This document shows, one piece after another, positions 52,068 through 63,563 of a stretch of DNA of 64,000 nt. This DNA comes from an uncultured Coriobacteriia bacterium (GTDB taxonomy: Bacteria; Actinomycetota; Coriobacteriia; Anaerosomatales; JAAXUF01). Positions within the stretch are counted from its first letter, which is position 1. Every line of letters begins with the position of its first letter. A program made the translations under genes and the position numbers. The notes beneath the pieces are model-generated. The model did no database searches, had not been told where the DNA came from, and worked only from the letters and a program-made list of their open reading frames with translations. The stretch is taken from NCBI GenBank assembly GCA_963726345.1, contig CAVSCC010000006.1, forward strand, positions 53,090 through 117,089, given 5' to 3'.

Positions 52068-53151
52068 CTAGCTTACGGTCTCCTCGACGGGCATGTCAGG
52101 TACCTCGAGAACGTCTCCGGGAAGGTCGCCGGGGTGCGGCTCACCCTTGGCGATGCGCTCCTCGCGCTCCTCGCGGGCGATGATCGGAACCATGGCCGCC
52201 ACGGCGACCTCGACCATGTCGTCGGTCGGCTCGCGCGTGGTCATGCGCTGCAGCTGCATCCCCGGCCACAGGAGGACCTTCACGAACGGGTTGGTCCGAG
52301 TGGTTGCCGGCCCACTTCACGGTGACCTCGTAGGCGAGGCCAGCGACGAGCGGCAGGAAGATCAGCCGAGCGAGGATGGCGATCATGGTGATGCCGATTC
52401 GGCTGGTCACGCCGAGGTTCTCGGCGATGAGCCTGACCGGCACGAGCGAGAAGACCAGGATCGCGAGGATCATGACCATCAGCAGGAATGACGTCCCGCA
52501 CCGCACGTGGAGCGTCTCGTAGCGCTGGATGAGCTCGGGCTCGAGCGGAAGGTTGTGCTCGTAGGCGTGGATGGTCTTGTGCTCGGCGCCGTGGTAGCCG
52601 AACACGCGCTTGATGTCTTCCATGCGCCCGATCGCCCAGATGTAGCCGAAGAACGCCACTACGCGCAGGATGCCGTCGACCATGTTCCAGGCGAACGGCT
52701 GCTCGGTGGCCTTGATGCGGAAGCCGTAGGTCGTGAGCACCGCCGGCAGGACGATGAAGAACAGGATCGCGAGTCCGGCCCCCAGCACCATGGTGATGCT
52801 GATCTCCTTGGCGGACAGCTGCTCCTCCTCGGTGTCGCCGGCAAGTGACGCGGACACCGAGAAGGCCTTCATGGCCAGCGAGAGCGTCTCGACCATCGCG
52901 ACGCAGCCTCGCACGATCGGCCAGCGCATCCAGCTCTTCTTCGCCTTGCCGGACTCCAGGTCATGCTCTTCGAAGTGGATGCTTCCGTCAGGCGTGCGGA
53001 CCGCGACGGCCCAGTTGTACCTGCCGCGCATCATGATGCCCTCGAGCACCGCCTGACCGCCGATGTGCGTGTGCGTGATCGGGCCGTCGATCGCGGGCAG
53101 CTTGGCAGTTGCGTCAGTCACGTTTGGGTGCCTTCTCGTAGGGTTCGCCAC
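52068..53151 (-). CDS. DUF1385 family membrane protein; 1 frame break near 52300
   Basis: The ORF reads IGGQAVLEGIMMRGRYNWAVAVRTPDGSI...VFGYHGAEHKTIHAYE...HVRCGTSFLL. This family typically sits next to prfA/prmC. The annotated start overlaps thyX by 38 nt, so the true start may be internal. Confidence 0.8.
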
Positions 53152-53797
53152 AGGTCATCTTGCCTTCTCGGCAGGGGCCCCGCCGACAGGATGCTCCAGC
53201 GTCCATGAAGATGTACGGGGCCACCGGCTCGATGAGGTCCAGCATCACGAGTGCCAGCTCGCGGATCTCCCACTGCGCGCGCTTGCAGCAGCGCAGCTCG
53301 AAGAAGTGCAGAAGCTCGCGGATGTTCATGGTGACGACGATCTTGGTCTCCATCGCGTTGGGCAGCAGGTAGCGCGCGTCCTCGGGCGCGACACCCGAGT
53401 CAAGGAGCTGCCGGTAGGCGATGAACGACGCCGCGCACGAGTCGAGGAACGCCGAGGCGGCCTGTTCGTCGGCGGCCACCTCGGGAGGCACGATGAACGC
53501 GGGCTCATCGGTGTAGGACACGTAGCGCTGGGACTGCTGGTTGTAGCTCGCGAGCCGATGCCTGACCAGCTGGTGCGTGAGCGCTCGCGACACGCCGTCG
53601 ATGGCGAAGGTGAAGCTCGCATGCTCCAGCGCCGAGGTATGGCCGCTGGTGATGATGACCTTGAGGACCTTGCGGACGGCCTCGTCGCTCATCGTCTCCA
53701 TGAGCTCGGCCGCGCCGACCGGCGCGTAGCACAGACGCGCCGCAGCAGCGATCGCGCGCTCCGGATCAGGCGTGCATGAGAGCAGTTTGACGTCCAC
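53114..53797 (-). CDS. thyX: FAD-dependent thymidylate synthase ThyX (intact)
   Basis: The ThyX motif is present in ...SALEHASFTFAIDGVSRALTHQLVRHRLASYNQQSQRY.... A GTG start is preceded by AGGAGG. Confidence 0.93.
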   Translation of the reverse strand: MDVKLLSCTPDPERAIAAAARLCYAPVGAAELMETMSDEAVRKVLKVIITSGHTSALEHASFTFAIDGVSRALTHQLVRHRLASYNQQSQRYVSYTDEPAFIVPPEVAADEQAASAFLDSCAASFIAYRQLLDSGVAPEDARYLLPNAMETKIVVTMNIRELLHFFELRCCKRAQWEIRELALVMLDLIEPVAPYIFMDAGASCRRGPCREGKMTCGEPYEKAPKRD

Positions 53798-53852
53798 GTA
53801 CGAGCTGCCTCCTAGGGGCTGGGCGACACGCGAGCTGCGCGAGAAAGAAGAC

Positions 53853-53878
53853 GGGGAGACGAGTCGCCTCGTCTCCCC
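53853..53878 (-). terminator. Intrinsic terminator downstream of rpmE
   Basis: An 11-bp perfect stem (GGGGAGACGAG-tcgc-CTCGTCTCCCC) is followed on the minus-sense RNA by GUCUUCUUUCUC. Confidence 0.65.
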
Positions 53879-53909
53879 ATTCTAGACAGCGTGTAGGCGA
53901 TGCGCGAAC

Positions 53910-54515
53910 TTACTCGGCGGCCTCGATGTCGGTCTCTTCGATGATCTCGGCCACGACCTCGCCGGTCTCTTCGTCGGTGATGACCGTGTCGGTGACGATG
54001 ATCTCCTCGACGACCTCGCCGGTCGCCTCGTCGGTGACAACGACGTCGTCGATGACGGTGTCGGCGACGAGCCCGTCGGCCTCGTCAACCTCGATGACCT
54101 CACTGACGGTCTCCTCGGCATCGAACTTGTCGGCGCGCGCCTCACGCTGCGCGGCCTTCTCCTCGCGAGTCGCCTTGACCTTCTCGGCTTCCTTGGCCTT
54201 GGCGGCCTTCTCGGCTTCCTTGGCCTCCTTGGCGACCTTCGCAGCGGCAGCGGCCTCGTCGGCGGCCTTCACGCGGGCGACCTTGTCGGCGGCTTCCTTC
54301 TCGCGAACCGTCGCGGCAGCGTTGCCGAACTTGTCGCTGAAGCGCTGGACACGGCCACCGGTGTCGACGAACTTCTGCTTGCCGGTGTAGAACGGGTGGC
54401 ACTCCGAGCACAGCTCGACGTGCAGGTCCGACTTGGTCGAACGCGTCTTGAACGTGTTACCGCACGAGCAGTGGACGGTTGCTTCCACGTACTCCGGGTG
54501 GATTCCCTGCTTCAC
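53910..54515 (-). CDS. rpmE: Ribosomal protein L31 (zinc-ribbon type A) with a ~130-aa C-terminal extension (intact, 201 aa)
   Basis: The first ~70 aa are canonical L31: [64 protein letters not shown]. An A/K/E-rich tract follows, and then acidic repeats ([14 protein letters not shown] / [14 protein letters not shown]). A GTG start is preceded by GGAGG. Confidence 0.9.
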
Positions 54516-54758
54516 TTACAAACACCTCCGATAACGGCCTGGTTTCCGACCAGGCCTGAGGACAGCCGAGCTAGTGTATCACCGCACCAGCCGACCAGCA
54601 AAGGAAATCTGGACGGGTTTGAGGGTCTTCGCAACGGGGTCGAGCTGTGCGAGCGGCATCCCTTGGGGGTGCCGCGCGCAGTTACGCAGCAGAGCCGCCC
54701 ACACGGGCGGCTCTGCGAGTATGTCTGAGCACGGCGCCCCCGAGGGATGCCGCGCCTG
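54516..54758 (-). promoter_or_regulatory. Structured rho-rpmE intergenic region (rho terminator and/or candidate L31 leader)
   Basis: There is an 8-bp hairpin at 54536-54556 next to the rpmE RBS. A 12-bp perfect hairpin at 54689-54716 is nested inside 25-nt inverted-repeat arms at 54653-54677 and 54728-54752 (22/25 complementary). Confidence 0.35.
54689..54716 (-). terminator. 12-bp perfect GC hairpin about 40 nt downstream of the rho stop
   Basis: GCAGAGCCGCCC-acac-GGGCGGCTCTGC, read directly. Confidence 0.5.
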
Positions 54759-56114
<1,356 letters not shown>

Positions 56115-56118
<4 letters not shown>

Positions 56119-56777
56119 GCGTTCTTCACTTTCTCCCAGTCGGCCAGGAATGACTCCAGGCCCCTATCGGTGAGCGGATGCTTCACCAGGTTCTTGAGCA
56201 CGGAGAACGGGACCGTCGCGATGTCGGCGCCCATGAGGGCCGCCTGCGTGACGTGGTTCGCCGAGCGAATCGAGGCCGCGATGACCTCGACTTCGTGACC
56301 GAAGTCGTAGTTGCCCAGCGCGACGACCACGTCGGCGAGCTGGGCGATACCGTCTTCGCTGATGTCGTCGAACCTGCCGACGAACGGCGATATGTACGAA
56401 GCTCCCGAACGGGCCGCCAGCATCGCCTGCGGCACCGTGAAGCACAGCGTCATGTTCACCTTGATGCCGCGCTCGTGAAGGATCTTGGTGGCGGCCAGGC
56501 CCTCGGGCATGGTCGGGACCTTCACGATGAGGTTCGGCGCGATGGCTGCGAGCTCCTCGCCCTCGCGCACGATCTCGTCACGCTTCAGGCCGACGGTCTC
56601 GCCGCTCACCGGGCCGTCGACGATGTCGCAGATGCGCTTCAGGTGGTCGTGGAAGCCCGCGAGCGTACCGCCGACCCGCGAGTACAGCGTGGGGTTGGTC
56701 GTGACTCCGGAGAGCACACCCCAACTCGCCGCCTCTTCGATCTCGGCGATGTCCGCCGTGTCCAGAAAGAACTTCAC
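56115..56777 (-). CDS. tal: Short-type transaldolase / fructose-6-phosphate aldolase family (intact, ~220 aa)
   Basis: A GTG at 56777 is preceded by GGGAGGAAAG. The ORF reads VKFFLDTADIAEIEEAASWGVLSGVTTNPTLY...LIVKVPTMPEGLAATKILHERGIKVNMTLCFTVPQAMLAA...ASYISPFVGRFDD. The ORF track fuses it to the upstream gene (56115..58130). Confidence 0.9.
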
Positions 56778-56820
56778 GTCGTCTTTCCTCCCACCTTCTC
56801 TGTGCGCCGAGTATCCGGCT

Positions 56821-57728
56821 CTAGTCGGTATCGAGAGCGCTTGCCACCACGATGCTCGAGCACTTCTGCCACCGTGCGGTCGAGCTGGTGGCTGTAGATG
56901 CACCGGGATGTCGTGTTCCTGCGCAAGGTCCTCGATGTATCCACCCAGCGTGCGGATGTTTGCGAAGTTGTCGCGGTAGCGCGCGTGCGGCCGATTGCCG
57001 TCTGTCTGGGCTTCTCGGATGTAGAAGTGGCTCAGATGGGATTCCTCGTCATCCACCCCGATGACGAGCTGGACCACCCGAGCGGTGCCGAACTTTCGGG
57101 GGTCAAGGTATCCCGGGACGATGTGGATGCCCTCCACCACCATCGACATGCCTTCGAGCACCGCGCGCTTGATCAGCGCGTTGACTCCGGTGCTTACGAC
57201 GGCGGTCTGCTCGCGAAAGCCGACGATCACGGGATTGGCGCCTTGCGGCACCGGGACTCGCAGACCTCGCCACGCGTTGAACGCACTCTGATGAATCGCG
57301 GGCATGAGGTCCTTGGTGAATATACCACGCATGACTTCTCGGATGGAATCCGTCGACGAAATGCGGTTGATGCCCAGCCGGTGGGCGACCTCGGTGGCGA
57401 TCGTCGACTTGCCCACGCCGGTCGTTCCGCCGATCAGCACGATGAGCGGGCGGTCGCTGGCGAGACACCTCGCGAAGCTTCCGGTAGCGCGTCGCGTACC
57501 GCTCCCCCGCCGAGCGCTCCAGATGCTCCATCGGCGATCGTGCGAACCCTCTCCGAGGAGATCCTGTGTCTCGTCGTGCTCGAGCAGCTCGTCTTCGATG
57601 GCTTGGGCGATCGTCCAGGCCTTGTTGGGCACCAGCCCGGTCGCCGTGAACGACTGGGCGAGCAGGCCCTTGGAGAACGGCAGGCCGTGCGCCTTGTCGG
57701 TGATGATGATCGTCTTGGAGTCTGTCAC
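56821..57728 (-). CDS. 2-phosphoglycerate kinase homologue (COG2074-type); about 4 frame breaks
   Basis: A GTG at 57728 is preceded by GGGGAGGGGG. The N-terminal domain reads VTDSKTIIITDKAHGLPFSKGLLAQSFTATGLVPNKAWTIAQAIEDELLEH. The P-loop kinase core reads DRPLIVLIGGTTGVGKSTIATEVAHRLGINRISSTDSIREVMRGIF...AIHQSAFNAW...MVVEGIHIVPGYLD. As far as I remember it, this matches the archaeal 2PGK family. The probable stop is the TAG at 56823..56821. Confidence 0.75.
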
Positions 57729-59084
57729 GTCGCCCCCTCCCCACGCGTCCGCCCGCGAGCTAGCGCGGTTCGGGCAACCGAGCTCGATAGCTGCTTCCAG
57801 GTCCGCGCCGTCGACGGCGACCGGCACGTTGTCGCAGAGCACCGTCGGCACACCCCACTCCTCGCCCGCGGCCGCCACCACGTCGATCGCGGCCGCCTTG
57901 AGCTCGGTCAGCAGCAGGTCGAACCTGCCTGCCGACGGCGGCCATGTCCGCGCGCAGCAGCGAGCGGTCCGAGAGGTTGCGCGCTCGACGCGACGACCTC
58001 GCAGCCGTACTCGCTCCTCGAGGTGCGCCGCGAGCGTCGGCAGCATCGCAGCGGGCGCGGTCGTCGCGAAGAAGACGCGCTTGCCCGCGACCGGCTCGAT
58101 GGGCGCCGGGCGAAACGTCGTGGCGACCACCGGCAGGTCCGGCCGCGCCGAGGCGATCGCAGCGCGGATGGCCGTCGATCTCGGCGGGCGTGGCGACGGG
58201 CTCCTCGGCGGTGGCGATGATCGCGAGGTCCGCGCGCGCGAGGCGGTACGGGCCGAAGTAGTCGCGCACGTACGTCTCGCCGCGGCCGGCGCCGATCACG
58301 AGCACGGTCGCGTCGGCCGCGACCGGCGGAATCGCCGAGCCGGAGCCCTCGAGGATGAGGAGCTCCTTGCCGAGCGTGTCGGCGAGCAGCGCGCCTTCGG
58401 GCACGTTGCTGAAGAACGTCTCGCCGGCCATGCCGCCGCCGCACCGCCGGCAGCCGACGGTCGTGACGCGGCTCATCACCGCGTCCTCGTAGTTGTCGCT
58501 CGACGCGTGCACGCCCTCGCGCGCGAGCGCGAGCAGGTCGGGGGTGGTGAGCGCGACGCGCTCGCCGAAGATCAGCTCGGGCTCGGCGGGACCTCCTCGG
58601 CCCATCGCCAGCACCGCGACGTCGATCCCTGCGGCCTTGAGCTGCCGAGCGATGTAGGCGCTGACGGCGGTCTTGCCCACGCGCTTGCCGGTGCCGATGA
58701 TCCCGAGCGCCGGCGTCACGGTGACCACCTGCGCGCGGGGCGGCGTGAAGACGAAGTCCGCGCCGCGGTACTCGGCACCCGGCGGCCAGCGCGATGGACG
58801 CGAGTTCGAAGCGCTCGGCCGAGGTCAGCACCGGCTCGTCGGACAGGTCGACCACGGCGTCGGGCAGGTAGCGTTCAAGCGCCGTCGACAGCGCCTCGGC
58901 GGCGGTGGGTGCGGTCACGAGCGGCACGCCGTAGGCGCCGAACCCCGCGTCGAGGTCGATCTTCTCGGTCCCGCCGAGAAACGCCGCCGCGACGCACCTC
59001 GTGCTCGCGCGCGAGCTCCCCGAGCGCGAAGCGAACGACGGGCGGGTAGTGCTCGCCGTCGATGAGCGCGACGACGCGGCTCAT
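57725..59084 (-). CDS. Cyclic 2,3-diphosphoglycerate synthetase (cDPGS) homologue; at least 5 frame breaks
   Basis: The ATG at 59084 overlaps the upstream stop (ATGA). The reconstructed protein reads MSRVVALIDGEHYPPVVRFALGELAREHEV / VAAAFLGGTEKIDLDAGFGAYGVPLVTAPTAAEALSTALERYLPDAVVDLSDEPVLTSAERFELASIALAAGC / YRGADFVF...VTPALGIIGTGKRVGKTAVSAYIARQLKAAGIDVAVLAMGRGGPAEPE...LILEGSGSAIPPV...VVATTFRPAPIEPVAGKRVFFATT...FDLLLTELKAAAIDVV. The LIDGEHYPP start, the GTGKRVGKT P-loop and the ~440-aa length fit the cDPGS family as I recall it from Methanothermus. The 3' end is ambiguous (57725 or 57760). Confidence 0.7.
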
Positions 59085-59930
59085 GCCTCGGCCTCGGCGA
59101 TCCGCACGTCCTCGGCGGTCACGTCCGGCGCGACGGGGTCGGAAACGCTCGCGCCCGGCCGCCAGCCGCAGACGTGCTGGTGAAGGCCCCGGTAGTCGCC
59201 GACGATCTCGGCGTCCACGTAGGGCTCCTTGCGAAGGATGCGGACGTTGGTGTTGTCGCGGATCTCGATGATGTTGTACGAAGGCCGCACCTTGCCGCGC
59301 AGCCGGTGCGTGCAGCAGGTCCCGGCGTTGACGATGAGCATGTCCTCCAGGCGCCAGACGTTGGGGACGTGCTTGTGGCCGCAGAGCACGAGGTCCACGC
59401 CGTTGTCGGCGAGCACGCGGAGCAGGTCGCCCGCGTCGTGGACGATGTTGCGCTCGCGCCCGGTGCCCGGCACCGGCACCAGGTGGTGGTGCATCGCGAC
59501 GATCTTGAACTCCTCCTGGTCGATCGCGAACCGCTCCTCGAGCCAGCGGTACAGGTTGCGCCCGATGCGCCCGGAGTCGAGGTCGGGCTCGCTCGAGTCC
59601 AGCCCGATGACGCGCAACCCCGGCGAGTTCGAGTTCGATGCGTCGCGCGCCGAAGAGCTCCTCGAAGTGCACGTCGCCCACGTTGCGGGCGTCATGGTTG
59701 CCGATGAGAACCACCTGGCGCGCGCACTCGATGCGCTGCAGCAGGCGGTGGGCCTGCCGGAACTCGGCGCGAAAGCCCATGTCGGTCAGGTCGCCGGTCA
59801 CGATCACGATGTCGGGCGCAAGCTCGTTGAGCTCGTCGACCACGCGGTTCGCAAGACTGGGGATGTGGTACTGGCGACCCGCAGTGCAGGTCCGAGATCT
59901 GCGCGATCACGAGGGGATTGCTCATGCCCA
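59081..59930 (-). CDS. Calcineurin-like metallophosphoesterase (CpdA/Icc-like); 2 frame breaks
   Basis: The ORF reads M(G)MSNPLVIAQISDLHCG (DxH), DIVIVTGDLTD (GD), VVLIGNHDARN (GNHD), KIVAMHHHLVP (H) and DLVLCGHKHVPNV (GHxH). The stop overlaps the cDPGS start. Confidence 0.85.
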
Positions 59931-59960
59931 TCGACCACCCTTGTTCAGAGGACCATCGGC

Positions 59961-60953
59961 CTACTTGGGGACCGCGACGCCCCCGCCTTGCCCCGTCAGC
60001 TTGCCCGCCGCATCGAGATTGCCAAGCTGCCTCTCGATACCGAGCAGCGTGTTCAGGATCGTGTCGAAGCGCGCTTCGTCGTAGCGGACCACCTGCGTAG
60101 TCGCCCTTGATCCCGCCGAGCTTGGCCGCCGCTTTGAGCGCGTCCTCATACGTGCCGAGCTCGTCGACCAGACCGAGCTTCTTGGCCTCCGAGCCGTTCC
60201 AGGCCCAGCCGGTGGCCAGGCTCTCGACCTCGGAGCGCTCCATCTTGCGGCCCTCGGCGACGATGTCGATGAACTGGGCGTAGACCTCGTCGACCGACGT
60301 CTGGATGAGCGCCGTCTCGGTCGCGGTGAGCGCCTCGAACGGGCTGCCCGCGCCCTTGTACTCGCCCGCGGTGATCGTCACGAACTTGATGCCGAGCTTC
60401 TCGAGCAGCCCGTTGACGTTGGGGATCTCGGTGATGACGCCGATGCTGCCCACCGCCGAGCCGGGCAGCGCGATGATCGTGTCGGCCTGCGAAGAGACCA
60501 TGTAGGCGCCCGACGCGTCGACGTCGCCCACCGAGACGACGACCGGCTTCTTGGCGGCCTTCACGTACGCCGAGATCTCCTCGCTCGCGGCGACGGTGCC
60601 GCCGGGCGAGTTGACGCGCAGCACGATCGCCTTGACGTCGGAGTCATCCTCGGCACGGTTGAGCTTGTCGAGGAACTCCTCGGGCGTGATGATGCCGCCT
60701 GCCGCCGAACCGCTCCCCGCGATCGCTCCGTCCATCGGGATGACGGCGATACCGTTGCCGGAGATCAGCCGATCGGGGTTACCACTGCCGAGAAGCGACA
60801 CCGACCAGCCGCAGCTGCCGATGATGGCGGCAAGGCTGAGCGAGATCACGAGCACCCATATCCACGCACGTGACTTGCGAGCGGAGCTGCACGGTGCGGC
60901 GGGCGCGACGAGCGCGGGATGGCCGGGCGGAGTTGCGGGTCTTCGAAGGACAT
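59961..60953 (-). CDS. sppA: Signal peptide peptidase SppA, 36K type (peptidase S49); about 2 frame breaks
   Basis: The ATG at 60953 follows a GGAGG RBS. A TM anchor (WIWVLVISLSLAAIIGS) comes first. The S49 core reads IVLRVNSPGGTVAASEEISAYVKAAKKPVVVSVGDVDASGAYMVSSQADTIIALPGSAVGSIGV...GEYKGAGSPF. Confidence 0.88.
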
Positions 60954-61089
60954 GCGTGCCTCCGTGCGTTGAGGGTGAGATGCGGAAAGCGGAAAGCGAG
61001 GGATTGAGAGGTATCTTCCCCTCGCGAGGCCAAGTCGGTCAAACATGCAGAGTACTCGCTGCTCGCCGGCTGCGGCAGAGCGTTCGGCG

Positions 61090-62009
61090 TCAGAGGAGTC
61101 GGGCGCCCTCGCCGATCGATGCGGACCGCCTGCGGGGCGCGGCGCGTCGGGAGCGCACGCGCGCCCACGGCCGCGCGCTCTGCGACCTCGACCGCGAGCG
61201 CGTAGGCGGCCTCGTCGGTGTCGGCGGCGACCAGGCCGATGACCGTCGGCCCGGCACCGGAGAGCGCCACGCCGGCGGCGCCCGCGCTGCGCAGGATGTC
61301 GTGGACGGCCCGCAGGTCGCCGACGGCCGAGGCGCGGTACGGCTCGTGCAGGCGGTCGGCGAGCGCCGCGCCGAGAAGCTCGGGCCGGCCGGTCGCGATC
61401 GACGCCGCCAGCAGTCCGGCGTGCGCGACGTTGAAGGCGGCGTCCGCGTGCGGAACGTCCGTCGGCAGCATCGCGCGAGCCTTCGAGGTCGCGAGCTCGC
61501 CGGTCGCCGACGACCACGACCGCAGCCAGTCCGCGAGCCGGCTCGAAGCGAGCGGTTCTCGGCCGACCGGCGTCGGTCCAGCACACCGTGAAGCCGCCGA
61601 GAATCGCCGCGGCGGCGTTGTCGGGATGGCCCTCGATGCCCGCGGCGAGCTCCAGCACGCGATCGCTCCCGGGGTCCTCGGCGAGCAGCCGGAACCCCAG
61701 CAGCAGCCCGCCGACGATCGCCGAGGACGACGAGCCGAGCCCGTTGCCGAGCGGGATGCGGTTGACGCACTTCACGCGCGCAGCTGCGTCCGGCTGACCG
61801 GCGACCTCGAAGGCGACCTTCATCGCGCGGACGACCTGGTTGCGCTCGTCGGTGGCGAGCACGCCCGCGCCCTCGCCCTCGACCTCGACGCTCCAGCGCT
61901 CGGCCAGCTCGGCCTCGAACTCGTTGTGGAGGTCGAGCGCCAGGCCGAAGGAGTCGAAGCCCGGGCCGAGGTTCGCCGAGGTGGCGGGTACTGAGACGCC
62001 GGCTCCCAC
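61090..62009 (-). CDS. thrB: Homoserine kinase; at least 3 frame breaks
   Basis: The ORF reads VSVPATSANLGPGFDSFGLALD, then the GHMP motif NRIPLGNGLGSSSSAIVGG, then GIEGHPDNAAAAILGG. The next frame reads MLPTDVPHADAAFNVAHAGLLAASI...LHEPYRA...SGAGPTVIGL. The ORF track fuses it with hom (61090..63300). Confidence 0.9.
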
Positions 62010-62012
62010 GGA

Positions 62013-63300
62013 CTAGAGCTCCTCGACGCGGATGACCGCGGCGATGCTCGTCACCACGTCGAGCGACTCGATCTCGGCCAGCGCCGAGCGCACGTCGGCC
62101 TCGCGAGCGGTGTGCGTCACGTAGACGATCTGCGCGACGCCGCCCTCGGCGCGCTTCTGGATGACGGAGCCGATCGAGACGCCGTGCGCGCCGAACACCG
62201 TGGCGACCGCGGCGAGCACGCCGGGCTGGTCGGCGACGGCGAGGCGCACGTAGTACTCGGTCTCGAGCTGCGCGATGTCGCGGACCGGCGAGCGTCTCGG
62301 TGCAGGTGCAGCCGACGAGCGGCGCGCACCCGGTCTGGATGCGGCGCGCCTCCTCGATCAGGTCGCCGACGACCGCCGAGGCGGCCGGCAGCGAGCCGGC
62401 GCCCTCGCCGAAGAACATCGTCTCGCCCACCGCGTCGCCGACCACGTAGATGGCGTTGTAGACGCCGTTGACGCTGGCGAGCGGGTGGGCGTTGGGGATC
62501 ATGGTGGGATGCACGCGCACGTCGATGCCCTCGGGAGTGCGACGCCCGATCGCGAGAAGCTTGATGGTGTAGCCCATCTCGGCGGCGTAGGCGATGTCCT
62601 CGGGAGCGAGTCCGCGGATTCCCTCGGCGGGGACCTGGCTCATCACCACGCGGCTGTTGAACGCGATGGAGCACAGGATCGCGATCTTGGCGGCGGCGTC
62701 GAGGCCGTCGACGTCGGCGGTCGGGTCGGCCTCCGCGAAGCCCTTGGCCTGCGCCTCGGCGAGCGCGGTCGCGTAGTCGAGACCGTCGGAGGCCATGCGC
62801 GTGAGCATGTAGTTGGTGGTGCCGTTCACGATGCCCATGACCGTCTGGATCTCGTTGCTGGTCAGCGAGTGCTTGAGCGGGCCGATGATCGGGATGCCGC
62901 CGCCGACGCTCGCCTCGAAGAGGACGTCGACGCCGTTGGCCTCGGCCGCCTGCATGACCTCTTCGCCGTGGCTCGCGAGCAGCGCCTTGTTGGCGGTGAC
63001 GACGCTCTTGCCGGAGTTCAGCGCCGCAAGCACGACCTCGCGCGCGACACCGGTCCCGCCGATGAGCTCGATGACGATGTCGAGCGAGTCGTCGGCGATC
63101 ACGTCGTGCCAGTCGTCCGAGCACTTCTCGGCGGGAAGGCCGAGATCGGCGAAGCGCTCGGTGGTGCGGTCGGCGAAGCGCGCCAGCTCGATGTCGACGC
63201 CCGCGCGGCTGCGGAAGTCCTCGCCGTGGCGCGTCAGAATCTCGACGACGCCGGATCCAACGGTTCCCAGTCCGACCAGGCCGACTCTGATGGTGCGCAT
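62013..63300 (-). CDS. hom: Homoserine dehydrogenase with C-terminal ACT domain; 1 frame break near 62285
   Basis: The ORF reads MRTIRVGLVGLGTVGSGVVEIL...VVTANKALLA...LFEASVGGGIPII...GIVNGTTNYMLT...DPTADVDGLDAAAKIAIL.... The ACT fragment (62013..62249) reads YVRLAVADQPGVLAAVATVFGAHGVSIGSVIQ. A GGAGGA RBS precedes the ATG. Confidence 0.93.
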
Positions 63301-63563
63301 GACGATTCCTCCGCGTTCCGTGGCCGCGCACGGAGCGCGCAGCTGCCGGCGACCATTGTAGCCGAGAAGCCCAGACCGCCCGGCGGCGCGCGACCGGACA
63401 CCGTCTCGCGGCTAGTCCGAGACCGCGCCGGGCATGAGAGAAGCCTTACGCCGCTCTCACCCCCGCTCACGTTCGGTGCCGATGGTATGCAAGACAAACG
63501 GCGGGCAGAACGATCACCCACAACAGAGCACGACCCGCCATGACGCACTCTCGGAGGTGCTGC

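Follow-up and report, generated by a model that had tools for sequence, protein, structure and literature searches.

A metallophosphoesterase gene next to cyclic 2,3-diphosphoglycerate synthetase in uncultured Actinomycetota: a candidate hydrolase of the pathway

Cyclic 2,3-diphosphoglycerate (cDPG) is a thermoprotectant and a commercial 'extremolyte'. It has been said to be exclusive to hyperthermophilic methanogens (PMC10690619), and the archaea that make it need two enzymes alone, 2-phosphoglycerate kinase (2PGK) and cDPG synthetase (cDPGS) (PMC10690619, PMC12136491). The cDPGS of Methanothermus fervidus is reversible, and Methanothermobacter thermautotrophicus has a membrane-bound cDPG hydrolase, inhibited by K+ and Pi, for which no gene was given (PMC1224877); this activity has been known since Sastry et al. 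1992, as cited in PMC10690619 and PMC1224877. We describe here a metallophosphoesterase (MPE) gene that lies immediately upstream of a cDPGS gene (cpgS) in a stretch of 64,000 nucleotides, hereafter the window, from an uncultured Coriobacteriia bacterium of the order Anaerosomatales (contig CAVSCC010000006.1).

An earlier note on this DNA had proposed the gene as a candidate for the enzyme that opens the cyclic pyrophosphate of cDPG, adding that this enzyme is not known to have an assigned gene. The literature that we searched bears this out: the activity is known, and no paper ties cDPG to a metallophosphoesterase or assigns the hydrolase a gene. A search combining 2,3-diphosphoglycerate with actinobacterial taxon names listed papers in none of which the diphosphoglycerate term occurs, and the published description of cultured Anaerosomatales makes no mention of a cDPG pathway. 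The three-gene bacterial arrangement described below, and the candidate assignment, are absent from the literature searched.

Judged by its sequence and predicted structure, the MPE belongs to the GpdQ/Rv0805 type of phosphoesterase, with a binuclear metal site, and is soluble and cytoplasmic. Its gene is the first of a compact MPE-cpgS-2pgk unit, carried by many mostly uncultured Actinomycetota between thrB/sppA and fsa-rho. From this gene context we propose, with a confidence that falls a little short of even, that the protein is a hydrolase tied to the cDPG pathway, whatever its substrate; that it specifically opens the cDPG ring, which the same context suggests, is a good deal more doubtful. 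The features of the gene are as follows.

59081..59925, minus strand: MPE coding sequence, from Pfam PF00149, intact orthologues and the corrected open reading frame (ORF); an alternative ATG lies at 59931
59081..59084, minus strand: ATGA junction, read directly, in which the MPE stop TGA shares bases with the cpgS ATG at 59084..59082
59873..59874, minus strand: frameshift site 1, a CC run that is one C longer than in the intact orthologue from the related assembly L001 (DNA alignment)
59618..59621, minus strand: frameshift site 2, a GGGG run that is one G longer than in that orthologue (DNA alignment)

The start ATG at 59925 and the stop TGA at 59083..59081 were read directly from the minus strand, and the overlap with the cpgS start codon is exactly as the earlier note had described it. 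The gene itself is also real, but that note had missed that two 1-nt insertions divide it among three reading frames, so that no single ORF covers it (translation and tblastn). The N-terminus MSNPLVIAQISDLHCGS is in one frame and the middle (TGDLTD...GNHD) in another, while the third holds the C-terminal two thirds, with HHHLVPVPGTGRERN and CGHKH. Taking out both insertions gives a clean ORF of 280 amino acids with the same end, AEAEA then stop.

The reconstructed protein belongs to the calcineurin-fold phosphoesterases, as had been claimed: it matches Pfam PF00149 (Metallophos) with 70.8 bits against a cutoff of 21.5 (E=2.6e-19). There are 5481 homologues at E<=1e-5, the best of which are 280 amino acids long, 87-89% identical, and come from metagenome-assembled genomes (MAGs) of Actinomycetota/Coriobacteriia. 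All five metal motifs can be read in it (D12-x-H14, G44-D45, G75-N76-H77-D78, H145-H147 and G182-H183-x-H185); they are invariant both in 45 orthologues and in 33 diverse members of the subfamily, and the ligands align one to one with those of GpdQ in a profile alignment. The same 33 members share a signature consisting of GNHDxRxVG, DSxxPD, HHHLxPxPxTGRERN, AGD and GHxHV. Outside the metal site, conserved arginines (R209 in 33/33, R156 in 32/33, R158 in 31/33 and R80 in 30/33) would fit a small polyanionic, trianionic substrate.

An AlphaFold2 model built on the 45 orthologues has a pLDDT of 81.3 and a pTM of 0.83. In this monomer model the catalytic core is followed by beta strands at 216-244, and residues 261-280 are disordered. 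The MPE has no signal peptide and no hydrophobic or membrane segment, its first beta strand beginning at residue 5. A Foldseek search of the PDB with the model gave 125 matches at E<=0.001, and all 50 listed have the MPE fold. The top seven are GpdQ and Rv0805 (E 8e-16 to 4e-14, 20-24% identity), and purple acid phosphatases, which are monoesterases, are also among the matches.

None of the curated NCBIfam cutoffs was reached by the MPE (SpdA 40 bits against 400, YfcE 46 against 56). The top NCBIfam match, the anti-phage 'DS9_1' phosphoesterase, is a partial one at 69 bits against a cutoff of 420, and was rejected. So was the CpdA/Icc 3',5'-cAMP phosphodiesterase (NF008359), at 38 bits against 225. 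The description 'CpdA/Icc-like' used in the earlier note is thus right in a loose sense. The subfamily is one without prior characterisation, within an enzyme class that is itself known.

We then looked at the linkage from the side of cpgS. A contig scan of one genome per species (GTDB set), using a three-sequence cDPGS alignment as query, found relatives of cpgS in at least 510 species, and the best 80 of these loci (L003-L082) were searched with ten proteins of the block. Of the 80, 53 are from Actinomycetota (Coriobacteriia-type MAGs, Candidatus Aquicultor, Subteraquimicrobiales and one 'Acidimicrobiia' MAG); one is too short, leaving 52 informative loci. The MPE is directly upstream of cpgS-2pgk in 47 of them. 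Of the 42 junctions that could be measured, 35 show a 4-nt or 1-nt overlap between the MPE stop and the start of cpgS, and the adjacency persists down to about 50% identity in the MPE and 46% in cDPGS. Upstream of the MPE the loci vary, with sppA in many and other genes, a folP-like gene or a gap elsewhere; downstream, cpgS-2pgk is near-constant.

The order in the window is hom, thrB and sppA before the MPE, and cpgS, 2pgk, fsa and rho after it. The nearest neighbours were located with intact orthologues from L002, a 2.5-Mb MAG chromosome whose whole block is syntenic with the window.

57732..59084, minus strand: cpgS (cDPG synthetase), from tblastn pieces in three frames, with at least three frameshifts
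56852..57713 (aligned part only), minus strand: 2-phosphoglycerate kinase-like gene (2pgk), from tblastn, with one frameshift
56115..56777, minus strand: fructose-6-phosphate aldolase/transaldolase-like gene (fsa), from tblastn, 87% identical to L002 FSA; rho is next
59961..60927 (aligned part and ORF end), minus strand: SppA-type S49 peptidase gene (sppA), from tblastn, upstream of the MPE

That the gene downstream of the MPE encodes cDPG synthetase, as the earlier note had it, is confirmed by the L002 orthologue, which is intact, aligns to the window in four pieces at 52-77% identity (tblastn), and matches M. fervidus cDPGS (PDB 8ORU/8ORK) over its full length (residues 2-440) with E=6e-126. 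This identity was set against the PDB, since the copy of Pfam used had no CpgS_N model. The P-loop and CRRCGGGM are conserved, and 154 positions are invariant in an alignment of three sequences, two archaeal from the PDB and one bacterial. The L002 2pgk orthologue scores 303 bits over its full length against NCBIfam NF003259 (cutoff 343), fsa 258 bits against TIGR00875 (cutoff 246), and the L002 sppA orthologue 225 bits against TIGR00706. The gap of about 33 nt between sppA and the MPE holds AAGGGTGG, a ribosome-binding-like motif, read directly. A scan of 55900-61200 on both strands for promoters and terminators found no such site; this is consistent with one long transcription unit, weakly so in a genome of 66% GC.

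To view the linkage from the other side, 1.84 billion cluster representatives were searched exhaustively with the MPE; at E<=1e-30 its subfamily comprises 179 clusters. Identities in the following comparison were measured to the P0003 or L002 MPE. Members from Thermoleophilaceae (53-56% identity) have glpD and a DHPS/FolP paralogue upstream, and cpgS-2pgk-(fsa)-rho lies 0.6-1.8 kb downstream, past one or two unrelated ORFs. Closeness to cpgS thus outlasts a complete change of upstream context, with the rho anchor still present. The DHPS paralogue (L083:7120-8789, L090:6129-7789) is full-length (TIGR01496, 273 bits) and follows a glpD-like gene; DHPS::MPE fusions occur in some gene calls (P0275, P0278, P0279, P0286), possibly from frameshifted assemblies. 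In one of these loci (L083:10636-12231) a single 531-aa ORF joins 2-phosphoglycerate kinase (residues 5-267) to fructose-6-phosphate aldolase (300-510), which, if the fusion is real, hints that fsa goes functionally with 2pgk. In the other (L090), 2pgk is unfused and fsa absent, and the 544-aa protein between MPE and cpgS shows no similarity to the 523-aa membrane protein that follows the MPE in L095, a locus described next.

More distant members occur elsewhere. In Methanobrevibacter sp. DSM 116169 a single-domain homologue (46% identity) follows the NAC gene in a housekeeping context with egsA and rpiA, far from cpgS; other Methanobrevibacter and Methanobacteriaceae genomes in the data set carry cpgS. 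A metagenome scan with this homologue (P0160) gave a single partial locus. In a high-GC bacterium (L095, P0161; 42-45% identity) the order is CpsB-like phosphoesterase, MPE and membrane protein, PhoU is adjacent, and no cpgS is nearby. Two other peripheral representatives, P0142 and P0147, are on contigs of 3.2 and 1.5 kb whose context was uninformative. At 30-39% identity, in Thermococcales, Theionarchaea, Methanofastidiosa and Desulfurobacterium, the protein is about 500 amino acids long and tandem-duplicated, a form common to many Thermococcales genera. In P0131, the sole tandem protein inspected (compare P0127 and P0130), the second domain has no DxH motif and other ligands are altered, so that by its sequence it is likely to be a non-catalytic duplicate. 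In the one Thermococcales genome examined, that of Pyrococcus yayanosii (L085, CP002779.1:1271674-1287185), the tandem MPE follows a CBS-domain gene beside a type I cas cluster and does not adjoin cpgS. A published study puts the genes for cDPG synthesis in this species, PYCH_14390-400, just ahead of that cas cluster (PMC4890121); they would then lie no more than roughly 10-15 kb from the tandem MPE, though not adjacent to it.

Some of these loci carry an importer. Both Bacillota loci (L077:7041-13219, L080:34-4516) have cpgS, without 2pgk, between a GntR/PhnF-like regulator and a PhnS2/PhnU2-like ABC importer, and in Bipolaricaulota (L062:154-2590) the ATPase gene of a similar importer is directly upstream of cpgS. 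Such loci may serve to import or catabolise a compound like cDPG, cDPGS then working in the reverse direction. In Desulfurobacterium atlanticum (L087:3175-8452) an ABC importer immediately precedes the tandem MPE, and its binding protein, permease and ATPase are 39, 38 and 50% identical to those of the importer next to the Bacillota L077 cpgS; further upstream are a Phosphodiest/alkaline-phosphatase-family gene and a second ABC system. MPE with cpgS, cpgS with importer and importer with MPE form a triangle, which we regard as a weak association.

In the reading that we consider most likely, the MPE would hydrolyse a phosphorylated glycerate of the cDPG pathway; substrate, direction and regulation are predictions in what follows. 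The leading candidate reaction is opening of the cyclic pyrophosphate of cDPG to give 2,3-diphosphoglycerate (2,3-DPG), and the second is a phosphomonoesterase reaction on 2,3-DPG. Through either, the cDPG pool might be drawn down as a store of phosphate, carbon or energy. Members of the MPE superfamily, such as LpxH, ApaH and ADP-ribose/CDP-alcohol diphosphatase, also cleave phosphoanhydrides, and since the superfamily acts on these as well as on diesters, ring opening is chemically reasonable. Inhibition by the phosphate product is typical, and generic, of this fold, and the activity could be held in check post-translationally in such a way.

A hydrolase of this pathway is favoured because the neighbours are a genuine cpgS and a 2PGK-like gene, because the position of the MPE is conserved in Actinomycetota and remains near cpgS in Thermoleophilaceae despite the new upstream context, and because the diesterase fold and ligands of GpdQ/Rv0805 match and the arginines are conserved. 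It is favoured too by the 46%-identical homologue in a Methanobrevibacter, a genus whose other members carry cpgS, indirectly by the triangle with the importer, and by the documented cDPG hydrolase activity, inhibited by K+ and Pi, that lacks a gene (PMC1224877). Gene order in one phylum gives a lead, not a discovery. The widest form of the proposal is that the subfamily, including the unlinked Methanobacteriales orthologues, is the missing cDPG hydrolase and that many kinds of Actinomycetota, most of them non-thermophilic, both synthesise and degrade cDPG, as a regulated store of phosphate, carbon or energy; this we think rather unlikely.

A considerable number of observations weigh against the proposal. 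The earlier note had made it depend on the linkage being conserved in other genomes, which it is in Actinomycetota and, less tightly, in Thermoleophilaceae; but no MPE is found within 8 kb of cpgS in the 22 loci of Methanobacteriaceae (all MAGs, and also without 2pgk), the 2 of Bacillota or the 1 of Bipolaricaulota. Five of the 52 actinobacterial loci have cpgS-2pgk without the MPE: L011, L012 and L015, which form one clade, L021, which is separate, and the deep-branching L066, with the order thrC-thrB-cupredoxin-cpgS. At least two lineages of actinobacteria have lost the MPE and retained cpgS-2pgk, and the gene is dispensable there. In Thermoleophilaceae it is coupled by a 4-nt overlap to the DHPS paralogue, not to cpgS, and subfamily homologues at 46% identity or less are not linked to cpgS in the contexts examined. 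The evidence from linkage comes from a single phylum, and the gene order may have been inherited. Moreover, equal co-expression of a hydrolase and the synthetase would be an ATP-wasting futile cycle unless tightly regulated, and the MPE is soluble whereas the native hydrolase is membrane-bound (PMC1224877).

Translational coupling, which the earlier note had taken as a clue, is also less telling than it seemed. The overlap itself holds in most junctions, but as a control fsa-rho shows a 4-nt overlap in 36 of 45 of the same loci, and cpgS-2pgk overlaps in 34 of 52. Because fsa-rho overlaps as often as MPE-cpgS, an overlap in this block is no specific evidence for shared function, which weakens the argument. 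The block also keeps hom, thrB, sppA, fsa, rho, rpmE and thyX together, unrelated genes among them, and in actinobacteria hom-thr-rho-rpmE-prfA is a classic example of a conserved cluster whose genes are unrelated. The same picture could have arisen if MPE-cpgS-2pgk(-fsa) had been inserted before rho once, in an ancestor, and then passed on vertically.

It is accordingly a serious possibility that the MPE is a housekeeping phosphodiesterase unrelated to cDPG, whose adjacency to cpgS is inherited order in a compact and conservative block. It might for example be a cyclic-nucleotide or 2',3'-cNMP/oligonucleotide diesterase like Rv0805, or an organophosphate scavenger like GpdQ, these two being the closest solved relatives. 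The make-up of the block and its overlaps agree with this, as do the losses of the MPE without loss of cpgS-2pgk, the wide occurrence of the subfamily in organisms and contexts with no cpgS nearby, and the apparent organophosphate uptake locus of the Desulfurobacterium member. It is harder to reconcile with an adjacency to cpgS that outlasts class-level divergence and full turnover of the upstream genes, with the failure of the curated equivalog models for CpdA, SpdA and YfcE, and with an identity to Rv0805 and GpdQ of only 20-24%.

The MPE could alternatively be a biosynthetic or corrective phosphatase of the pathway and not the ring-opener, taking one phosphate off 2,3-DPG or a side product, or yielding a dephosphorylated derivative as the end product. 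Pairs of synthase and phosphatase are found in other compatible-solute pathways (OtsA/OtsB, MpgS/MpgP, GpgS/GpgP). The operon evidence applies equally to such an enzyme, co-expression would be natural for a biosynthetic step and escapes the objection of a futile cycle, and the structural matches include the monoesterase purple acid phosphatases. We know, however, of no such dephosphorylated product or step in cDPG metabolism; several lineages with cpgS-2pgk do without the MPE, and archaea that make cDPG manage with 2PGK and cDPGS only (PMC10690619, PMC12136491). We consider this unlikely, and clearly less probable than a housekeeping function.

The two frameshifts in the window are most probably assembly errors, with the gene probably intact in the organism, because most of the neighbours, several of them essential, are broken too and because orthologues 87-89% identical to it are intact. 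Within the 10 kb around it tblastn finds one frameshift each in hom, thrB, 2pgk and rho, besides the three or more in cpgS. When all genes in 53000-63400 were checked, frameshifts came to about one per kb, with hom, thrB, MPE, cpgS, 2pgk and rho split; two of the breaks, looked at closely, are single-base homopolymer insertions. This suggests that the window comes from an unpolished long-read assembly, and with frameshifts at this rate any ORF-based reading of it needs frameshift-tolerant translation. The long-read assemblies of the relatives L001 and L050 carry comparable breaks. It is thus highly improbable that the MPE is a true pseudogene without current function: the two frame breaks in the sequence as given would suggest it, but both are single-base homopolymer insertions, essential rho, hom and thrB are broken like cpgS and 2pgk, and outside the two indels the gene retains every catalytic residue.

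A protein phosphatase regulating cDPGS or 2PGK, which would answer to the regulatory phosphatase that the earlier note offered as an alternative, has its operon position in its favour and nothing else, and is barely credible, since the motifs are of the GpdQ/Rv0805 diesterase type (SDLHCG, TGDLTDMG and GNHD) and not those of the PPP protein phosphatases (GDxHG, GDxVDRG and GNHE), and by structure it is closest to diesterases of small molecules and to acid phosphatases.

Homologues of cpgS occur in many Actinomycetota, in mesophilic Methanobrevibacter/Methanobacterium, and also in Bacillota and Bipolaricaulota. Among uncultured Actinomycetota, cpgS and 2pgk are widely found as a complete pair, beside which lies a further conserved gene, that of the putative hydrolase; if confirmed, both results would alter the picture of cDPG as confined to hyperthermophilic methanogens. 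The MPE offers a clonable candidate for a cDPG-degrading activity that has been without a gene for over 30 years. If the assignment is true, it would help to explain cDPG as a phosphate or energy reserve, help to prevent product loss in strains that produce cDPG, and provide the first substrate assignment for a large MPE subfamily. The field is small and the evidence circumstantial, but it points to cDPG metabolism well beyond the hyperthermophilic archaea.

Among described enzymes, the best structural and profile match is GpdQ of Enterobacter aerogenes (PDB 2DXL/2ZO9/3D03; Foldseek E=8e-16, TM score about 0.65, profile E=3e-13). It shares with the MPE a cytoplasmic location and a similar length (about 270 amino acids), and all the binuclear metal ligands align. 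It differs in genomic context and is about 20% identical, and its aligned sequence shows neither the HHHLxPxPxTGRERN signature nor the conserved arginines of the MPE subfamily. The class III phosphodiesterase (CpdA/Icc) Rv0805 is the best single-sequence match in the PDB (E=1e-15) and superposes best locally, with an rmsd of about 3 Å and a target-normalised TM score of 0.79, and some MPE orthologues are annotated Icc/CpdA at source. It is, however, 23-24% identical, the CpdA model failed, and nothing points to cyclic-nucleotide specificity in the MPE.

The cDPG hydrolase of M. thermautotrophicus has the activity proposed for the MPE, cDPG to 2,3-DPG, and its inhibition by Pi (PMC1224877) would be expected of a binuclear MPE; it is attached to the membrane, for which the MPE has no segment. 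The methanogen homologue of the MPE, unlike the actinobacterial gene, is not near cpgS or 2pgk. The methanogen loci examined have cpgS alone, again unlike the actinobacterial operon, and in the two Methanobacteriaceae loci with listed ORFs a similar small ORF of 95-109 amino acids, which has no assigned family and starts MYKDE[LM]IQ[IL]HQFLVYVLK, lies just upstream of it (L054:7418-7747, L069:7627-7914). With the archaeal pathway of Methanothermus fervidus (2PGK and cDPGS) the locus shares its core, in that the pair of genes after the MPE is clearly homologous, the kinase being 2PGK-like. It differs in that the organisms are Bacteria, with MAGs mostly not from obviously hot habitats, and in that the genes form one operon with a third, the MPE.

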